Shown in pieces: positions 17,181 to 42,979 of a stretch of 52,473 nt of DNA. The translations under genes were made by a program, and so were the position numbers. The notes beneath the pieces are model-generated. The model searched no databases and was not told the DNA's origin. It saw only the letters and a program-made list of their open reading frames with translations. How positions within the stretch are numbered: position 1 is the stretch's first letter; each line of letters opens with the position of its first letter. Origin of the DNA: a virus (lineage: Duplodnaviria > Caudoviricetes); the IMG/VR virus record IMGVR_UViG_3300045257_000172, positions 1 to 52,473 of that record, one strand, 5' to 3'.

Positions 17181-17705
17181 CTACGATTTTCGCCATGCGA
17201 TGAAAAGCCTGCTGTCCACCAAGCTAGCCCCCTTGGTCATTTCAACTGTGGTAGATTGGAACCCTTGGGGCAACACTCGCTCTAAGGCGGGTACCACATC
17301 CCGGGACAGCACATCCTCCACTATCCCTATCCCATCATCACGGAGCATTGGGAGATAGCTTTGGATGAAGTATTGTTGGTCGCTGGGCACGTGAGAGCCG
17401 TCATCAATCAGAATATCGTACGGTGGGTTGAACCTACTCAGGGTTTCATCCGAGTAAGCGTTCCCGATAATAAACCTGAACCCCTCGGGCTTAACTCCGT
17501 TGTCTACCAAGTCCACTGCTATCAGATCACCGTACGGGAAATACTCAGCCCATGTCCGCATGGAATTACCGAATTGTAGCCCCACCTCTAGCAACCGGAC
17601 CGGCTTGGTGCGCCATTTGTGGAACAGCAGGTCATACAACTCGCAATAGTGGTGGTTGGTAGCCTTATCGGTCTGGCACTTTATACCAATGGCGTGCAAG
17701 GTCAT
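17181..17705 (-). CDS. Class I SAM-dependent methyltransferase, MycE/TylE-like sugar O-methyltransferase type
   Basis: 'TDK...HHY...Y', 'LLEVG', 'ILIDDGSH', 'IVEDV'. The ATGA-coupled start at 17705 is preferred over the ORF-track start. Confidence 0.8.
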   Translation of the reverse strand: MTLHAIGIKCQTDKATNHHYCELYDLLFHKWRTKPVRLLEVGLQFGNSMRTWAEYFPYGDLIAVDLVDNGVKPEGFRFIIGNAYSDETLSRFNPPYDILIDDGSHVPSDQQYFIQSYLPMLRDDGIGIVEDVLSRDVVPALERVLPQGFQSTTVEMTKGASLVDSRLFIAWRKS

Positions 17706-18607
17706 AGGGATGCCTTGTAGTGCTCGTACACTGCCCGTATTCCCTCTTCCAGCCCAATCTTGGGCTCCCACCCCAGCCCCCGTATCTTAGACGAATCTAG
17801 GAGCTTCCTTGGCGTTCCGTTGGGCTTATCTGTGTCCCATTCAATCACCCCATGGTACCTTGCTGCGGTTGCTATCGCTTCAGACAGAACATGAGTTGTT
17901 ACTTCGGTACCGCTTCCAATGTTGATTGGTTCAGGGCTGGAGTACTTCTTCAAACACAGGAGGCAGGCTCTAGCCAAATCGTCTACATGGAGCCATTCAC
18001 GCAGGGCTAAACCGTTACCCCACAGATGCACCTTACCGCCTTCAACCTTTGCCTTATGAAACTTGGCTATCATGGCGGGGAGAGCGTGCCCGGTCTCAGG
18101 GTCAAAGTTATCGTTTGGGCCGTACAGGTTACATGGCATGACCGAGATAAAATCACACCCGTACTGTTGCCGGTAGGCTTGGCAGAGCTTTATCCCGGCA
18201 ATCTTGGCTACCGCATACCACTGGTTGGTGGGTTCCAGGGGGCCAGTAAGTAGATATTCTTCCTTGATTGGTTGTGGACAATCCCGGGGGTAAATACAGG
18301 AACTCCCCAGGAATAGGAGCTTTTGGGAGAAATCAGCCGCTGCTGAAATAACGTTGTTCTGGATACGCAGGTTCTCCAGCAGGAAATCTACCGGATATGC
18401 GCTGTTCGCCCCGATCCCCCCAACCTTGGCCGCAGCAAGCACTACTTGGTTAGGACGATAATAGTTGAAATAATCCCTAACCCTCAGTTCGTTAGTTAAA
18501 TCCAGTGCTGCCCGATCAACGGTCAGCACCGTGCAATCTTGCCCTTCTAATGCCCGGCAGATGGCGCTCCCCACCATCCCCTTGTGTCCGGCTACAAAGA
18601 TTTTCAT
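17702..18607 (-). CDS. fcl: GDP-L-fucose synthase (GDP-4-keto-6-deoxymannose epimerase/reductase)
   Basis: GHKGMVGSA, AAAKVGGI.AN..YP.DF, LGSSCIYP, YAVAK, MPCNLYGPNDNF, REWLHVDD, KPNGTPRK. Confidence 0.95.
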   Translation of the reverse strand: MKIFVAGHKGMVGSAICRALEGQDCTVLTVDRAALDLTNELRVRDYFNYYRPNQVVLAAAKVGGIGANSAYPVDFLLENLRIQNNVISAAADFSQKLLFLGSSCIYPRDCPQPIKEEYLLTGPLEPTNQWYAVAKIAGIKLCQAYRQQYGCDFISVMPCNLYGPNDNFDPETGHALPAMIAKFHKAKVEGGKVHLWGNGLALREWLHVDDLARACLLCLKKYSSPEPINIGSGTEVTTHVLSEAIATAARYHGVIEWDTDKPNGTPRKLLDSSKIRGLGWEPKIGLEEGIRAVYEHYKASL

Positions 18608-19110
18608 AGGTCAATTCCGTAGATGCCAGGGGCTAAACGTTCCAAGTCCCAAGGGGCTTTAGGATTAATATAGGTGAGGGCGAGGAGTGCTTCCCAGAAC
18701 TCTAGTGGTCTATTCCTAATCTGGTCAGAGGTGAGGCGGTACTGCGCTCCTTGGATAAACTCGTAGATAGACCGTTTCTTCAGCCCCAACACATCACACC
18801 AGGAGTGGAGATTGGTTTTCCACTGGATGTTCCCATCCCATGAGCATCCCAACTTGGTACCGTACCAGCGTACTTCGGGGTCGGAGAGGTGTTTCAGGAA
18901 CTCGTAATCATGGTCGAAGGGGTCGCCTTGGCACAGAACAAACTCATCAGGGAGATCGCGGTAATAGCTCACAATCCAATCAAGGTACGCAGCAGCATCG
19001 CGCCCGGGGCGGTCTGGGTTACGATCAATGAAGATTGCCCACTCGGGGTGGAGAGGGGCAGTCCAATCAGTGTTTTCGCCACCCCCGGCAGCTACTACCA
19101 AAGCCTTCAT
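18604..19110 (-). CDS. DUF3431-like putative glycosyltransferase
   Basis: 'GR.A.AYL..IV..Y.DLP...V..QGDPFDH', 'GAQY.L....IR.RP.EF', 'W.LER'. Confidence 0.7.
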   Translation of the reverse strand: MKALVVAAGGGENTDWTAPLHPEWAIFIDRNPDRPGRDAAAYLDWIVSYYRDLPDEFVLCQGDPFDHDYEFLKHLSDPEVRWYGTKLGCSWDGNIQWKTNLHSWCDVLGLKKRSIYEFIQGAQYRLTSDQIRNRPLEFWEALLALTYINPKAPWDLERLAPGIYGIDL

Positions 19111-19637
19111 GGCACAGTGACTTCGTAGAGGGTGTTGGTGATTCTGTCCGGCCCCTGAGGGAACTTAGTATCCAGGATGTCTTTAAGGAAAGGTTGATTA
19201 GGGTGGCCGTAATCATGCCGGGCAATTACTCCACCGGGTTCAAGGAGTTGTACCCCAAGGTCTACGTCAGACTGGTTTTCCTCTGGGACCGTGGACCCAT
19301 CCAGGAAGATAAACTGGAACTTCTGCCCTGCGTTTAGCAACCATCTCATAGCCGCCTTTGAGTAATCAGCCGTAATGGTCACCCTATCATCAACCCCAAA
19401 CGCTTCTAAGTTAGCCATCATGGTAGAGAAGGTATCCCCCAACCAAGTATCGTTCCTGTGTGAATCAATGGAGGTAACGTGAACAGCTCCAGCCAAAGCC
19501 ATGACGATTGCTGAATAGCCGTTTGCAGCGCCTACCTCAAGCACGGTACGGTCTTTAGCTAGTTCCCGTAGTCTTTGGGCTTCCACGGGTACAATCGCCG
19601 TGGCGAGGTTCAGAGTGCGCCAGGTGGGGACGATCAT
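19107..19637 (-). CDS. Class I SAM methyltransferase (Methyltransf_24-like)
   Basis: 'VLEVG...GYS', 'FIFLDG', 'LEPGGVI..HDY'. Confidence 0.85.
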   Translation of the reverse strand: MIVPTWRTLNLATAIVPVEAQRLRELAKDRTVLEVGAANGYSAIVMALAGAVHVTSIDSHRNDTWLGDTFSTMMANLEAFGVDDRVTITADYSKAAMRWLLNAGQKFQFIFLDGSTVPEENQSDVDLGVQLLEPGGVIARHDYGHPNQPFLKDILDTKFPQGPDRITNTLYEVTVP

Positions 19638-20077
19638 ACTTCCCTACTGATAACGTCTGGTCTTGGGTTTGTAACCTTGGGCATGTAGTCTGGATAAACC
19701 GATACTGGTACACCTGCATGTTCGGATAGTAATTGTTTGGCCCTGTTTGTTGCTTCCTCGGGAGTGGCTCCAATTCCCCGTGCCTGAAGTCCGTAATCAG
19801 GACTATTCCAAACATGCTCGTTCGGTGGTTCCTCGCTGTGATCCCAGTTTCTTTTCACGACGCGGACTCCGTAATCTTTAATGCTCGATATTTCGTGCTC
19901 GAAGTAAGGCTTAAACTTATTATAGAAAACAGGATCAACCTGATATTTTATAATCTGGTAGCTAGATGGATCGTGGTAACCCTTGGCTAGCCCGATCTCT
20001 GCCATTTCCCTGCTAGAAAATACCCCTAGTACATTATCTCCTTCGTAGTCTGGCCGAACCAATAAAAACATTTTCAT
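19634..20077 (-). CDS. Hypothetical protein
   Basis: Coupled at both ends; N-terminal 'YEG..VLGVFSSRE.AE' is a common small phage domain. Confidence 0.6.
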   Translation of the reverse strand: MKMFLLVRPDYEGDNVLGVFSSREMAEIGLAKGYHDPSSYQIIKYQVDPVFYNKFKPYFEHEISSIKDYGVRVVKRNWDHSEEPPNEHVWNSPDYGLQARGIGATPEEATNRAKQLLSEHAGVPVSVYPDYMPKVTNPRPDVISREV

Positions 20078-20748
20078 GATAAGATAAACTCCATCTCCGA
20101 TTTAGATTTGACCCCATGGATCACGTCTATGCCACTGCGGTAGGCTTCCCGGGCTTGCATCAGTGTCCCCGGGATATCAAAGGAGTTTTGGCTGAACTCG
20201 CTCCAAAGGTTGTCCTGGACCGTTTGGTTCAAGCGTTCGCACACCAGCCCGAAAAACACATCAGGGGATGATTCAGGCGTGGAAGGTTGTCCGCGTCCCC
20301 GGGTGCAGATACCCTCCGAGATTACCTTTCTCCCTTCCTCGATGAACCTCTCGGCAAACTCACGGTGGAACAACCAAGGATTATGATAAAAGGAGTTGGC
20401 TTTACTCCCCCAGGTGGAGCTTCCGGCCCGATGAGAGGCTACGGCGTGTTCCATGGCTTGGTATCTGATATGATTAAAAAACAGGCAGTCGTACTCGGCT
20501 ACCAGCAGGTGTTCATGGTCGCTGGCTAACCCTATCTCCAAAGTGTTCAGTAGCCTCTCGGGCAAATGACTGGCGTCGATATACGAGTCCTTGCCGCAAA
20601 CAAATGAAACAAAACCTGCCGGTACCCAACAATGCCCACCCTCAGTAGTAATCAGCCATACATCGGTTGTCCCGCTATTAGGAACGTACTTCCAATGGCG
20701 TTGCAATGTTTCATTCCCCCCGGGGTACGTTTGTAAGAGCAGGAGCAT
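20074..20748 (-). CDS. Putative GT-A-fold glycosyltransferase
   Basis: 'LLVAEYDCLF' (ExD), 'H.PW', 'PDVFFG', C-terminal 'IHGVK'; cluster context. Confidence 0.55.
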   Translation of the reverse strand: MLLLLQTYPGGNETLQRHWKYVPNSGTTDVWLITTEGGHCWVPAGFVSFVCGKDSYIDASHLPERLLNTLEIGLASDHEHLLVAEYDCLFFNHIRYQAMEHAVASHRAGSSTWGSKANSFYHNPWLFHREFAERFIEEGRKVISEGICTRGRGQPSTPESSPDVFFGLVCERLNQTVQDNLWSEFSQNSFDIPGTLMQAREAYRSGIDVIHGVKSKSEMEFILS

Positions 20749-22475
20749 TATTTGAGGATTGGGGCCGCTTTCAGTTGCCGGATGATCCGTGCTTTCGCCA
20801 ATGGACTAGTAAACCGTGCCTTAATCTCCTCCATTGGATCAGGGGTGTAATACACAACTTGTCCATTCCCAGTGGAGGTAGTTTGGGTAGGTGCGGGGTC
20901 TACGGATGGACGCTGGGCCGCTGATACCGGACCATCCGCACCTCCCAAAGTTTGAGCGGGCGGGACGCTACTCCCGCTCGCCATCCCCGACGAGAGCGCC
21001 AATAACTGACGATCATCGGTTCCTGCGTGTCTGCTTTCCACGCCGCCGCTCAAAATCTTCTCCCACTCCTCGATTGGGATAGGGTTATGACTCCACCTCT
21101 GGTCCACCGTCAGGGTAGGCCAATCTTTTTCTTCTGTTTCGGTTGTGTTTACCCAAATGAATTTCTCTCGGTGGTACTCGTAGGCGTAAAACCCTATGCA
21201 ATTAAATTCGCTAAACTCACGGTACGGTTGGCTCATCACGTACTGCTCTATCGGTACCCGGTGCCGGGTAACACAGAATTTCCTGAACTCATCGTACAAC
21301 CACCGGGGAAAGAGGAACGGGAACCGGCGCATAAACTCAAACTCGGGTGGTTTACCTAGAAACCGTTCCATGACGTGCCGCCAAGCTTGTTCTTCGTTGG
21401 GGTGAGCTTGATCTATCGGGGTAATCATCCAAACAAACTTCCCGTCCTTTAAGTAGATACCGGGGGTTACGGGCTTGGTAAAAATAGTGTCTGAATCAAT
21501 GTGCAGTATCCAATCCGCATCACTGAACGTGTCGGCGTTGAGTTTGAATATCTGCTGGGAAAGGTAGTTATCCTGGTTAGCGGATCCTTCTCCGTACTCA
21601 ACCCTGGTCTGCCATTCAACTTCAGGGTATGCTTGGGAAGGGCTGGATGATATAACAACCGTGTTGCGGAACCCTTGGGCAAAGGTCTTGATTGATCGGA
21701 GGCAGTACTCCAGCCAAGGGTAATCCTTGGGGTAGGTTTTAATAAAGATGTCTGCTACCTCAGGTTTGGGGGGCGCAACCTGCGCCTTGCCTTTCTTGCG
21801 TTCCCTTAAGAAATCTATCAGCGTCCCGCTTTTATCGGCATGAAACAGGACACAATCAGTGGGAAGTTGAGCCAGGAGATTGTCTACCTCACCCTGGTTA
21901 GCAAACGGAGGATGTTTCCACCTGTGAGCAATTAACCGGGTTTGTTTCATTTTGGGCACAATCTGGTCAGCAGCGAAAACGTCCCAGGCTATGTCAGTAG
22001 CCATTACCGCTGCCCCGGCATGATCCACCACCATCCCTGGATAGACCGCTATCCCTGACATGTGGGCTGGAACATCTTTCACGTTTACAAAGTCCCCCAA
22101 GAACGGTTTACGGGGTTCAGCGTCGTATTCCTTGGCTAGTGCTGCTACCCACCCTGATTTGAGGGGGACTACATCCGCTTCAAGCCATAACCAGGGCTGA
22201 GGATTAGTCATTTGCACTCGTTTAGCTGCTTTAACGAATATCCGGTTGGGAGCCAACGGCCATCCGTCGAAACGTTCAGTCATCATCTCGATTTCCACCG
22301 ATTCAAATACCATTGAGAGATTATGCTTGATGGCCCGGTTATTGTTCGGATGCACTCTATCATCGGTTATTATCAGAGCGTGATGGCCGGGGTTGCGCCC
22401 AAGATCGACTATCCAATAGGACAGTTTGACCGCTAAATCTTGATCTACGGGGCTAACGGGGTAAGCGATTAACAT
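20748..22475 (-). CDS. Two-domain putative glycosyltransferase (GT-A-like domain plus DUF6492-like domain)
   Basis: Domain 1: 'WLWLEADVVP', 'HMSGIAVYP', 'LFH.DK'. Domain 2: 'IKTYPKD..WL..CL.SI', 'QQIFKL.AD', 'HIDSD', 'FSEFN'. Confidence 0.65.
   Translation of the reverse strand: MLIAYPVSPVDQDLAVKLSYWIVDLGRNPGHHALIITDDRVHPNNNRAIKHNLSMVFESVEIEMMTERFDGWPLAPNRIFVKAAKRVQMTNPQPWLWLEADVVPLKSGWVAALAKEYDAEPRKPFLGDFVNVKDVPAHMSGIAVYPGMVVDHAGAAVMATDIAWDVFAADQIVPKMKQTRLIAHRWKHPPFANQGEVDNLLAQLPTDCVLFHADKSGTLIDFLRERKKGKAQVAPPKPEVADIFIKTYPKDYPWLEYCLRSIKTFAQGFRNTVVISSSPSQAYPEVEWQTRVEYGEGSANQDNYLSQQIFKLNADTFSDADWILHIDSDTIFTKPVTPGIYLKDGKFVWMITPIDQAHPNEEQAWRHVMERFLGKPPEFEFMRRFPFLFPRWLYDEFRKFCVTRHRVPIEQYVMSQPYREFSEFNCIGFYAYEYHREKFIWVNTTETEEKDWPTLTVDQRWSHNPIPIEEWEKILSGGVESRHAGTDDRQLLALSSGMASGSSVPPAQTLGGADGPVSAAQRPSVDPAPTQTTSTGNGQVVYYTPDPMEEIKARFTSPLAKARIIRQLKAAPILK
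20951..21054 (-). ncRNA. tRNA-like cloverleaf element, copy 1, embedded in a CDS
   Basis: UUUGAGCGG/CCGCUCAAA closing stem; GCGUG-GAAAGCAGA-CACGC hairpin; CCGAUGA/UCGUCGG long arm; GCGGGA-GUAGCG-UCCCGC hairpin abutting the 3' strand. Confidence 0.55.
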
Positions 22476-24656: not shown

Positions 24657-25448
24657 TTATTCCTGTTGGCAAAAATCATTCACTGCATTCATTGCCTTGT
24701 CGATTGCTTCACGGAGAGAGTCGCCCCTTGCTTCTACTTCATTCTCGATTGAGAAAGTAATCGCGTCTTTAGTGTAACCCATGTCCTCCGCATTACTGAT
24801 GAATAATCGCGTGAAACGTCTAGGCTGCTTCGCGTATCCTTCCAGCCAATCTAGACGCTGCGTGTCCCTATCACCGAAGCCAGCGGGGCGAGCGGGCAAG
24901 GATTCAACCTCGCTGGGTGGCGTTTCGACTAGGCTTAATTGGGCTTCCGGATCGCCCGTTGACGTAGTATCCACCGCTCCGCTCAAATTTGCGGGCTGCT
25001 GCTCGGCAAGTTTCCGGTGTAGTCTAGCGATAATTTCAGACTGTTCTTGAAGTGCTCGTTGCTGACGATCCTCCCTTGTGGTGGAATCTGACTCAACTTC
25101 ATTGGGTTGCTGTAATAGCCGGCTGTAACCTTTCGCCCATCCTGAGACTGGGCTGACAATTTGGCATATCGGACACTTTATGGGAACCTCCTGAGATTGC
25201 TCGCTGGGCTGGTGCTCGAGGACGCGGCGGTTATGAATCCATTCAACTCCAGCCCAAAATCCAATCCATCTTTGGTGATGACGGGTTCCGTGAGTGCTTG
25301 AGGGACATTGGCCCATTGCCCATTTAGCAAAGTATTCTTTGGCTTCGGCTTTGAGCCTATCACCCGCACACAACTCTGGTTCACACTTCTCGTTAGGTTT
25401 TTGGTTAGTTGTCACGGCGCTAGTTGCCTCCATTTGCTTAGTTACCAA
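24657..25448 (-). CDS. Mosaic accessory protein B (start probably ATG at 25433)
   Basis: CxxC; C-terminal 'DTQRLDWLE...LREAIDKAM' is a common phage domain. Confidence 0.6.
   Translation of the reverse strand: MVTKQMEATSAVTTNQKPNEKCEPELCAGDRLKAEAKEYFAKWAMGQCPSSTHGTRHHQRWIGFWAGVEWIHNRRVLEHQPSEQSQEVPIKCPICQIVSPVSGWAKGYSRLLQQPNEVESDSTTREDRQQRALQEQSEIIARLHRKLAEQQPANLSGAVDTTSTGDPEAQLSLVETPPSEVESLPARPAGFGDRDTQRLDWLEGYAKQPRRFTRLFISNAEDMGYTKDAITFSIENEVEARGDSLREAIDKAMNAVNDFCQQE
24890..24987 (-). ncRNA. tRNA-like element, copy 2, embedded in a CDS
   Basis: UUUGAGCGG...CCGCUC closing stem; GUGGA D-like arm; GGCG/CGCC arm; GCGAGG-UUGAAU-CCUUGC T-arm-like hairpin abutting the 3' strand. Confidence 0.45.
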
Positions 25449-29665: not shown

Positions 29666-30118
29666 TCATTCTTTTTCCTCCGAACCGTTAGCATACCGAT
29701 ACATGCTTGAAGCATCATTTAGATGCTTGTCCTCTCCTGTACTCTTATCTCCTCTTTCTCCTGTCTTGATGGGTGATGATTTATTCCAACGAGATTTGGC
29801 TGCTTTCTCGGCCCTAGCTTTGTAGACGGCGTGAAACCCGTTGTAGTAATCCCAGTTGTGAATCTTGGGGCCTTTGTCCATGAAACCAGCAGCCAAAAGG
29901 CATTTAACTAACTCCTCAGCGTTGGCCTCTGGATAGTTAATGGCTCGGGCAATCTCGACTGCGGTGTATTTACTGAAATCTCCGTTTGGCTGGTTCGTAG
30001 CGGCATAGCACCACAACCGCTGCGGCACCCATAGGGCGTCCACTCCGATGGCGGCATGGAGACGGAGAGTTTTGCGATGGTTCCAAAACGAGGAGTCGAG
30101 TCTGACGTAGGGACTCAT
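29666..30118 (-). CDS. Phage replication initiator (replisome-organiser-type wHTH)
   Basis: 'YVRLD..F.NH.K..RL...G..A......LW.YA...G.....A.EIA...L...GF......IHNW..YN....AR..KAA..RW'. Start at 30118 preferred. Confidence 0.7.
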   Translation of the reverse strand: MSPYVRLDSSFWNHRKTLRLHAAIGVDALWVPQRLWCYAATNQPNGDFSKYTAVEIARAINYPEANAEELVKCLLAAGFMDKGPKIHNWDYYNGFHAVYKARAEKAAKSRWNKSSPIKTGERGDKSTGEDKHLNDASSMYRYANGSEEKE

Positions 30119-41570: not shown

Positions 41571-41764
41571 TTGACAAATACAAGCGGTAGTGTCATACAC
41601 CGCGCAGGTTAGCAGGACATAGCGAGGACTTCACACTCACGCTAACCCGCACTCCGAGGCCGTAGCCCAGATTCACCTCGTTGCAGGGCATTAGGTAATC
41701 GCCAATCGCATTACGATTGGAACATCGGTTACATAAGTTCTTCAACTAGAAGGAGATAAACATT
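41571..41764 (+). promoter_or_regulatory. Capsid promoter (-35 TTGACA) and structured 5' leader with SD AAGGAG
   Basis: Several helices (see findings); SD at 41750-41755. The -10 box is weak. Confidence 0.5.
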
Positions 41765-42973
41765 ATGGCCGCTTATTCTTGCAGCGATGTCCACAATGCC
41801 TTTCTCTACCTTGAAAACCAGATCAGCTCACGCATCTGGAACAAGGTAGGCCCGATTGATAACTGGATTGGGCGCACCGCCCGGGGAGAGTTTCCCAAGG
41901 GTATGGGCTTCACCATCAACTCAATGATGCTGGAGCGAACAATAACAACGAGTGAGGACGGAACCGAGTGGGTAACAGCAGTCCCGAGCACAACGAATGC
42001 GAATGCTCAGAATGCGGACAACTGTAATCCAACCCCGGAAGTTCTCACATTCGGTCAAACGTTGCGGCCATTCACGCTGGCTCGTAGAAACATTCAGACA
42101 GAAGAGTTCTGTATCAACGATCTCCAGTACGATTTCCAGATTGGAAAAGTCTTAGGGAACGTGATGGACATGCTCACCCACGTTTCAGAGTGGGTGTGGA
42201 TGAACCGGATGCAGAACACGTACTCTGATTCGTGCAACCACAAGATAACAGTCAAGCTAGCCGGGGACACCGACTCGACGACCTTTGATGCAACGAGTCC
42301 TCCAACGGCACGGCTTAACTGGCCAACCCTTGAAAACATCTACCAGTTTTTAGTCCTGGAAGGTGCAACCGGGGAAGGGGCGATTGGTTACGTGATGAGC
42401 ACGAATCAACCCGTGTTTAGTTTGTTTACCGACGCCATGACCAGCCGGGACCTGATTCGTCAAGACCCGGACTTGCGGATGGATTTCCGGTATGCCGACC
42501 CGCAGGTGTTACTCAACACTCCTGGGGCACCGTACTCCTATAATGGATTCAAGGTGGACTGGATCAAGTTCCCGCCACGCTGGGAGATTGTGGGTGGAGC
42601 GTATAAGCGCATCTATCCGTATGATCCCAAGGTTGCGGCCACCAAGGGATTCAACCAACCGGTAAGCAATTCGTACCGGTTCGCCACCTTCCAGGATTCA
42701 TTCATCTTCATCCCGACAGTTCACACGATGTTGTATGAGAACCCGGATACAAGTCCAGGGGACGGGGTAAAGTTCGACTTTGCCAGTCACATGGGCGTGT
42801 TCAAGTTCCTGGTTATCAAAGATCGCATCTGCAATCCTCGCGGTGAGAAGGGATTCTTCGATGCCCTATTCGCGTCCGCTTCCGAGCCGGGACAAACCTA
42901 CTTAGGTTTTGTTTTACGGCATTTAAACTGCGGCCCGATAGGTCCAAAGAAATCCTGTCTGAATTACAGTTAA
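41765..42973 (+). CDS. Major capsid protein
   Basis: 402 aa after the scaffold, strong SD, followed by a hairpin; 'G.FP.GMG', 'C..DL', 'NP....G.F' motifs. Confidence 0.75.
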   Translation: MAAYSCSDVHNAFLYLENQISSRIWNKVGPIDNWIGRTARGEFPKGMGFTINSMMLERTITTSEDGTEWVTAVPSTTNANAQNADNCNPTPEVLTFGQTLRPFTLARRNIQTEEFCINDLQYDFQIGKVLGNVMDMLTHVSEWVWMNRMQNTYSDSCNHKITVKLAGDTDSTTFDATSPPTARLNWPTLENIYQFLVLEGATGEGAIGYVMSTNQPVFSLFTDAMTSRDLIRQDPDLRMDFRYADPQVLLNTPGAPYSYNGFKVDWIKFPPRWEIVGGAYKRIYPYDPKVAATKGFNQPVSNSYRFATFQDSFIFIPTVHTMLYENPDTSPGDGVKFDFASHMGVFKFLVIKDRICNPRGEKGFFDALFASASEPGQTYLGFVLRHLNCGPIGPKKSCLNYS

Positions 42974-42979
42974 GACTGT

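Follow-up and report, generated by a model that had tools for sequence, protein, structure and literature searches.

A cloverleaf-shaped element inserted in frame in a phage gene and its relatives in other phage contigs

The insertion and its host gene

The stretch of DNA considered here, 52,473 nucleotides (nt) from a virus of the Caudoviricetes (IMG/VR record IMGVR_UViG_3300045257_000172, positions 1 to 52,473) and called the window throughout, carries on its minus strand an open reading frame (ORF) in which a structured element of 104 nt lies in frame. An original prediction had placed a tRNA-like cloverleaf RNA at this site, in the tail of what it labelled a glycosyltransferase gene. The features of the locus are as follows.

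20748..22475, minus strand: host ORF of 575 amino acids (aa), with a conserved C-terminal peptide after the insertion; sub-threshold DUF6492 match
20951..21054, minus strand: structured element, copy 1 (fold; 97 bits and E about 1e-23 with covariance model R1, copy 1 being in the training set; aligned with 20 others in alignment A4)
20951..21054, minus strand: translation of copy 1, (I)LSGGVESRHAGTDDRQLLALSSGMASGSSVPPAQ(T), in frame with the host ORF
21046..21053, minus strand: 5′ strand of the closing ('acceptor-like') helix, UUGAGCGG, pairing with 20952-20959
20952..20959, minus strand: 3′ strand of the closing helix, CCGCUCAA (fold and 21-copy alignment)
21025..21043, minus strand: 5′ ('D-like') hairpin GCGUG-GAAAGCAGA-CACGC with a 9-nt loop (fold; helix 2 of the covariation analysis)
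20987..21019, minus strand: variable central arm CCGAUGA..UCGUCGG with inner CGUCA/UGGCG (fold; not alignable in A4)
20960..20977, minus strand: 3′ ('T-like') hairpin GCGGGA-GUAGCG-UCCCGC, stacked on the closing helix (fold; helix 3 of the covariation analysis)

All arms of the cloverleaf, and the coordinates given for them, were reproduced in both the minimum free energy (MFE) fold and the centroid fold (MFE −46.4 kcal/mol), and the cloverleaf is retained when copy 1 is folded within 354 nt of context. The closing helix joins RNA positions 2-9 with 96-103 and has 8 base pairs (bp), or 9 bp counting the flanking U-A. Its 5′ strand is separated by a 2-nt linker, CG, from the D-like hairpin, and together with the stacked T-like hairpin this makes up, as the prediction had it, a tRNA-like topology, which recurs in other copies. 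The absence of UUCRA, of a 7-nt anticodon loop and of CCA had also been seen correctly, the central loop being of 5 nt, the T-like loop GUAGCG, and the 3′ end of the element being followed by ACUU. Relative to dinucleotide shuffles the fold was favourable (z −2.47; equal or better folding in 3 of 200), and more weakly so when codons were resampled with the protein fixed (z only −1.66; 23 of 400 resamples folding equally well). With correction for G+C content it ranked 77th among 13,094 104-nt windows of the sequence. By itself the fold of copy 1 is not exceptional; conservation raises it above chance, for 20 more copies from other phage contigs show the closing helix and the hairpins at either end again, with compensatory changes.

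The name glycosyltransferase is unproven for the host ORF, which reaches 19.5 bits with DUF6492 (PF20102) at a gathering cut-off of 22.9; the homologues P0014 and P0024 pass it at 23.8 and 25.2. Sequence searches of PHROGs and PDB turned up no relative of this ORF. The gene order makes a part in sugar modification plausible, because the neighbours encode a NAD-dependent sugar epimerase/dehydratase and a methyltransferase.

The homologue search returned 143 proteins, and an alignment with 13 homologues places the 34-36 residues of the element between EEWEKIL, the last conserved enzyme block, and the conserved C-terminal peptide TSPLAKGRIIKxLKAxPVxK. The peptide encoded by copy 1, ILSGGVESRHAGTDDRQLLALSSGMASGSSVPPAQT, is of low complexity and follows directly on EEWEKIL, as predicted. 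The accompanying suggestion, that a native protein tail had been shaped by RNA structure, did not hold, the insertion being absent from the nearest homologue, P0001, of 80% identity: P0001 reads EKILGGADGP and the window EKIL-SGGVESRHAGTDDRQLLALSSGMASGSSVPPAQTL-GGADGP, with 34 residues more. Copy 1 is an in-frame insertion behind the enzyme part of a DUF6492-like protein, where its translation yields a disordered linker of 34 residues. A TTTG direct repeat stands on either side of 102 nt at this copy. Distant homologues keep the bracket ILSGG ... PPAQT(L/F) around differing middles, of roughly 20-50 residues as counted from the tails. No match to longer proteins was found for a 40-residue element peptide at E up to 10, and DNA for the closest homologues was matched neither by tblastn against phage records nor by viral-contig scans with the window protein or P0001.

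Some further observations concern the surroundings of copy 1. The region 17702-22475(−) forms a sugar-modification cluster with the NAD-dependent epimerase/dehydratase, a DUF3431 gene, the methyltransferase and the DUF6492-like ORF, and an FkbM-type methyltransferase is fused to many of the host-ORF homologues. The basic C-terminal peptide, (F)TSPLAKGRIIKxLKAxPVxK at 20748-20830(−), is common to homologues with quite different linkers and could be a membrane- or partner-binding tail. Immediately 3′ of copy 1, at about 20881-20949(−), lies a long stable hairpin, GGGAGGUGCGGAUGG...CCAUCCGUAGACCCCGCACCUACCC, encoding GGADGP...DPAPTQT, which is present in P0001 too; 104-nt windows from 20881 are among the best folds of the whole window over both strands (−54.6 and −52.9 kcal/mol). 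Better G+C-corrected folds than that of copy 1 are found at 30113(−), 42921-42977(+), 41737-41753(−) and 28449(+), with residual z of −3.8 to −5.1.

Copies of the element and their covariation

A search of viral contigs for the 18-nt 5′ module brought up 26 loci, of which 19 were read as the element and 7 as chance, the latter mostly genes for SGGV peptides such as SGGVDS. Two loci are redundant, L339 repeating L331 and L341 being the contig of L162. An earlier scan of the viral contigs with a pattern for both ends had found the same ends in L200. The 3′ halves lay outside the search pattern, yet a matching 3′ strand was present at 106-180 nt together with the stacked hairpin. Alignment A4 of 21 phage-contig copies shows the closing helix UUUGAGCGG/CCGCUCAA, the 5′ hairpin 2 bases on and the 3′ hairpin stacked on the helix, around a replaceable middle of about 30-130 nt, the whole element measuring about 75-190 nt. 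Three divergent copies in A4 (L200, L306 and L231) were alignable at the ends only.

Covariation among homologues, which the original prediction had set as a check, is present in this alignment. Over the three helices of the 21 copies, 90.8% of the cells are standard pairs, against 28-44% when the partners are slid by 1-3 columns, and the covariation score of 0.134, against 0.083 in shuffled alignments, was reached by 0 of 500 shuffles, a count among related copies. The closing helix is paired in 98.8% of cells and has a C-G to U-A compensatory change in L341 (pair 7-209: CG 20, UA 1). Helix 2 is paired in 88.2% of cells (pair 13-30: CG 14, UG 2, UA 1), and in helix 3 pair 175-188 is CG 7, GC 7, AU 1 and UA 1, and pair 176-187 GC 14, AU 4 and GU 1. 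In translated copies compensatory changes alter the peptide, GCGGGA/UCCCGC encoding SGSSVPP and GCGAGA/CCUCGC encoding SESSASP (L321, L340), which argues that selection on the nucleic acid keeps the ends and the end hairpins. The loops of the two end hairpins also co-vary as two classes, GAAGGA occurring with xAUYAAx in 4 of 4 copies and GAAAGCAGA-like loops with xGUAGCGx in 12 of 13. A contact between the loops, as at the elbow of a tRNA, could explain this, and so could the mere existence of two lineages. T-loop-like loops are seen in some relatives: L334 alone has UUCAAAU, and one loop class, of 4 copies, has AUCAA in 3 of them. As for folding energy, four copies gave z of −2.47 to −3.19 with dinucleotide shuffles, and five gave z of −1.1 to −1.7 with codon-preserving resampling (combined p 0.007).

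The middles behave differently from the ends. Those of five copies have no significant similarity in either orientation, and L200 and L306, the latter represented by P0121, a 92% identical relative, have near-identical flanks, identical ends and unalignable middles. An inversion cassette was for this reason rejected, the more so as an inverted window copy would reach a stop.

Covariance model R1 was used to search for additional copies. The 'both copies' of the original prediction found a counterpart in a diverged second copy in the window:

24888..24987, minus strand: copy 2, UUUGAGCGG ... GCGAGG-UUGAAU-CCUUGC-CCGCUCGC (R1 18.9 bits, E 0.017; fold z −1.43)

Copy 2 is in frame with a 263-aa ORF at 24657-25448(−), where it encodes LSGAVDTT...SLPAR, and has only the 9-nt ends in common with copy 1. 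R1 also picked up one copy in L004 and two tandem copies in L005, all of them in frame and sense-oriented, in the other linker between domains of the DUF6492 family. The tandem pairs are those of L005:3196-3499, 5 nt apart in an in-frame protein linker, and of L327:2223-2538, 4 nt apart and intergenic. A weak second copy lies within the tRNA array of L330, and a minimal palindrome of 74 nt with the same ends stands beside a tRNA in L336. A third soil study contributes a contig of 187 nt that agrees with 20952-21059 at 102 of 108 bases, with both flanks unlike the window; in another short contig the match ends after the 5′ strand and the first hairpin. The window itself is present in two soil metagenome runs, which may be its source and are hence not independent. 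Among the matching contigs none was found that joins across the element as a deleted form would.

For the few homologues with DNA, the bracket around the middle is conserved by codon although the proteins are only 41-45% identical. ATT TTG AGC/T GGC GGC GTG GAA is common to the window and L162, a shorter stretch is shared with L164, and ATT TTG AGC GG with L165. The eight codons of KILSGGVE are the most nucleotide-conserved window of the gene relative to L162 (0.92), as is WEKILSGG relative to L164 (0.92), third-position identity over the host gene as a whole being 0.33-0.34 in these two comparisons. L165 keeps the 3′ partner in a perfect 11-bp helix. In L162 the ends are UUGAGUGG/CCACUCAA, a C-to-U change being matched by a G-to-A change, and the latter replaces Ala by Thr. 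Where the PAQ partner is missing, homologues encode these residues differently, by ATC TTG TCG in L180 and ATT TTA GGT in L082.

An unrelated, highly conserved element of 97-105 nt was encountered in 70 of the 119 loci L184-L302, for example at L224:612-714, in many small viral contigs. Its 9-nt ends, TTTGAGTGG...CCGCTCAAA, are the same as those of the family, with a U.G pair on one strand only; it has a long GGUGGUGG/CCACCACC hairpin and no Rfam match.

Genomic setting and known RNA and element classes

Inside ORFs, 14 copies were found at 12 independent loci, and at all 12 the element has sense orientation (binomial p 0.0002). All 14 are free of stops in one sense frame, with the same phase relative to the first base of the element, and are therefore read as translated. 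The hosts that could be named are the DUF6492 family (two linkers), a primase-like protein (L344, between the CHC2 zinc finger and Toprim) and DUF3631 proteins (L200, L306), the ends in L200 lying in frame near the N-terminus of a DUF3631-family protein of an unrelated phage. The host ORFs of L340, L321, L325 and L338 and the 263-aa ORF of the window had no match in sequence searches of Pfam, PHROGs and PDB.

A further 11 copies are intergenic, 7 without an open sense frame and 4 with short open frames only, and their removal never produces an ORF with more than 42 codons on each side of the junction. In these copies stop-free frames are at least as common in antisense (0.73 per copy) as in sense (0.36), so the sense-only bias within ORFs is not forced by stop codons. 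At all 5 of the independent loci with tRNA genes close by, the element shares its strand with the tRNAs; in L326 it begins 24 nt past a tRNA-Gly, and in L330 it lies within an array of nine tRNAs. The 3′ flanks of the copies have no consistent context. As a side observation, L334:5005-5617 contains tRNA-Trp, tRNA-Met and then a 364-nt transfer-messenger RNA (ARAGORN) directly upstream of a copy with a canonical-looking T-loop, GGUUCAAAUCC.

Membership of an RNA family such as tRNA or the C4 type, which had been raised for copy 1, was not borne out: cmscan with Rfam gave no match at copy 1 at E up to 10, and none in the whole window at gathering score. C4-type phage RNA models, which we take to be part of Rfam, would then also be unmatched. 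At seven intergenic copies Rfam, including tRNA (RF00005), gave no match at E up to 1, the neighbouring true tRNAs scoring 42-65 bits, and ARAGORN found 0 tRNA genes in the window. A search of the window by blastn-short with the element and its flanks returned 11-15-nt matches only (E 0.75 or worse), with no complementary target beyond chance 12-mers. A hammerhead or other ribozyme was rejected on the lack of an Rfam match, and an integron attC site was dropped, the core-like motifs standing in the order opposite to what we take to be the consensus. A miniature inverted-repeat transposable element (MITE) of the host was rejected likewise: in 401 bacterial genomes from a single phylum the pattern matched 14 times, in 13 genomes, and the control 20 times, in 18, which is no enrichment.

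Full-text literature searches and Rfam 15 brought up no account of such an element, and the family is apparently undescribed. PMC10732093 concerns 10-nt bypass inserts, which are unrelated to the element.

As we understand the known systems, the closest in kind would be the Rickettsia palindromic elements (RPE) by behaviour and the C4/CI tRNA-like phage RNAs by shape. RPE are likewise short palindromes of about 100-150 bp found in frame in unrelated genes and in non-coding DNA, tolerated as extra peptide segments and differing in presence between homologues. They differ in residing in many copies on a bacterial chromosome, where the phage family has 1-2 copies per genome and no sequence relation to them; the family in turn has a tRNA-like three-part layout, covarying hairpins, an association with tRNA arrays and sense orientation only. 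P1 C4 and P4 CI are small cloverleaf-like phage RNAs embedded in longer transcripts, and in them as here variable loops could carry specificity; unlike them, the present element lies in ORFs and is translated, has no Rfam match and found no target in the window. Bacterial MITEs and elements of the repetitive extragenic palindromic (REP) type share the terminal inverted repeats, the small size, the lack of coding capacity of their own and intergenic copies in operons, but for the phage family no consistent target-site duplication was seen across copies and no multi-copy host genome in the one phylum searched, its structure is conserved past the ends and its orientation is strict. With tRNA genes, short interspersed element (SINE)-like elements and Y RNAs (YrlA), it shares acceptor-, D- and T-like helices in tRNA order, together with AUCAA or UUCAAAU loops in some copies and true tRNAs as neighbours of some. 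It differs in being passed over by ARAGORN and by the tRNA model of Rfam, in lacking both an anticodon arm and CCA, in a closing helix of 8-9 bp and a middle with 1-3 variable hairpins, and in having no linked reverse transcriptase.

Interpretation and alternatives

Copy 1 probably belongs to a family of small structured elements with horizontal spread between the genomes of phages. What selection keeps would be the tRNA-like shape, on the transcribed strand and most simply as RNA, because copies are always oriented with transcription and free-standing ones are found beside tRNAs. The shape may be recognised by machinery that binds or processes tRNA, such as RNase P, and copies in ORFs would persist as harmless linkers, with spread and exchange of the middle proceeding through recombination at the conserved ends.

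Several points weigh against this reading. The role at the RNA level is one that we infer, no RNA run being listed among the runs that hold the region, and the counts of G.U and A.C on the sense strand (7 against 4, p 0.27) pick no strand. The host mRNA would not survive excision of the RNA, and yet copies in ORFs stay open; the strand bias would also be obtainable from a strand-specific single-stranded-DNA mechanism. The search patterns were derived from the window, so that the 5′ 18 nt are conserved by design of the search (which left the 3′ strand of the closing helix free), and the copies are related to each other, so that the shuffle counts cannot be taken as probabilities. Copy 2 is matched weakly, and the insertion-free homologue P0001 is known as protein only and not as DNA. 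As to mobility, there are only 1-2 copies per phage genome, no candidate mobilising enzyme was found, and neither was a target-site duplication, TTTG flanking copy 1 and no such repeat being seen in the flanks of the other 20 copies.

It is possible, if doubtful, that the family is nothing but selfish DNA, a palindromic insertion element of the MITE or RPE kind that uses its ends and hairpins, in single-stranded DNA, for transposition or recombination, the RNA fold being a functionless by-product. A conserved terminal inverted repeat, TTTGAGCGG/CCGCTCAAA, surrounds a replaceable middle as in such elements; presence varies among close homologues (P0001 is without it), and unrelated genes and intergenic sites are hit, namely the two DUF6492 linkers, the primase-like and DUF3631 genes and spacers between genes. 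The tandem copies of L005 and L327 and the 74-nt palindrome of L336 fit as well, and strand bias could come from the single-stranded mechanism mentioned. The many copies per genome typical of MITEs and RPE are nevertheless not seen, no duplicated target sites were seen in the flanks, the 401 bacterial genomes showed no enrichment, and we know of no transposase for the element. Moreover the internal hairpins covary and the end loops change together (4/4; 12/13), neither of which transposon ends need, and the orientation always follows transcription. Quite unlikely, by our estimate, is a small RNA, tRNA decoy or processing signal cut from the enzyme mRNA by RNase P or RNase Z. P1 C4 and P4 CI RNAs are processed by RNase P and would be the model, and the tRNA-like layout with its stacked helices of 8 + 6 bp, as well as the relatives in tRNA arrays on the tRNA strand, some with T-loop-like loops, are in line with such processing. 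Against it stand the Rfam searches without a match (E up to 10 for copy 1 and up to 1 in seven others), the absence of CCA and of a 7-nt anticodon loop and the silence of ARAGORN; cleavage would also separate the ORF from its conserved C-terminal peptide, and with 14 of 14 ORF copies stop-free in one phase it is read-through that matters.

Two further explanations are weaker still in our judgement. That only a disordered linker between the LSGG and PAQ motifs is at work, its codons being complementary by chance, is highly improbable. LSGG...PAQ brackets do recur in many homologue proteins, and codon-preserving resampling retains much of the fold, single copies reaching z of only −1.1 to −1.7; but the intergenic copies, 7 of the 11 with stops in every sense frame and none leaving an ORF that bridges the junction upon removal, already contradict it, the compensatory changes alter the peptide and the same ends occur in unrelated proteins. 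Scarcely credible is a recoding or splicing event, in which the ribosome would hop from UUG to UUG over 102 nt, or the RNA be spliced, to yield a P0001-like EKILGG. The TTTG repeats flank the 102 nt in the window, and the joined product would equal P0001. Bypass of the T4 gene 60 type has a stop after the take-off codon, and here, where the UUG codons do match in the window, there is none; other copies are without a flanking repeat. Ribosomal bypass and splicing are argued against because all 14 ORF copies are open and in phase, and so translated; a bypassed or spliced gap need be neither open nor in phase.

A bolder version of horizontal spread, unlikely as it stands, would see in the element a mobile RNA module of phages that derives from tRNA and corresponds, in prokaryotes, to SINE-like elements, recognised by the tRNA machinery of the host: RNase P and RNase Z, CCA-adding and modification enzymes, or defence nucleases that target tRNA. 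The copies in arrays would then be processed small RNAs or decoys and the middle copy-specific information, and the linkers of essential genes would be colonised much as by inteins and introns, the element being kept by translation instead of splicing.

If the reading of copy 1 as one of a family of horizontally spreading structured elements is true, phages carry small elements overlooked by annotation, which appear as low-complexity linkers in genes and as nothing visible between genes. Such elements would explain the hypervariable 'LSGG...PAQ' linkers of unrelated phage proteins, would mark sites of horizontal exchange, and would provide a testable link between phage tRNA arrays, tRNA mimicry and gene mosaicism. 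A full census is made possible by model R1. The family moreover lends itself to natural experiments, in which one gene can be compared with and without its element, or identical ends around unlike middles; these can show whether the shape of a nucleic acid mainly constrains a coding sequence.

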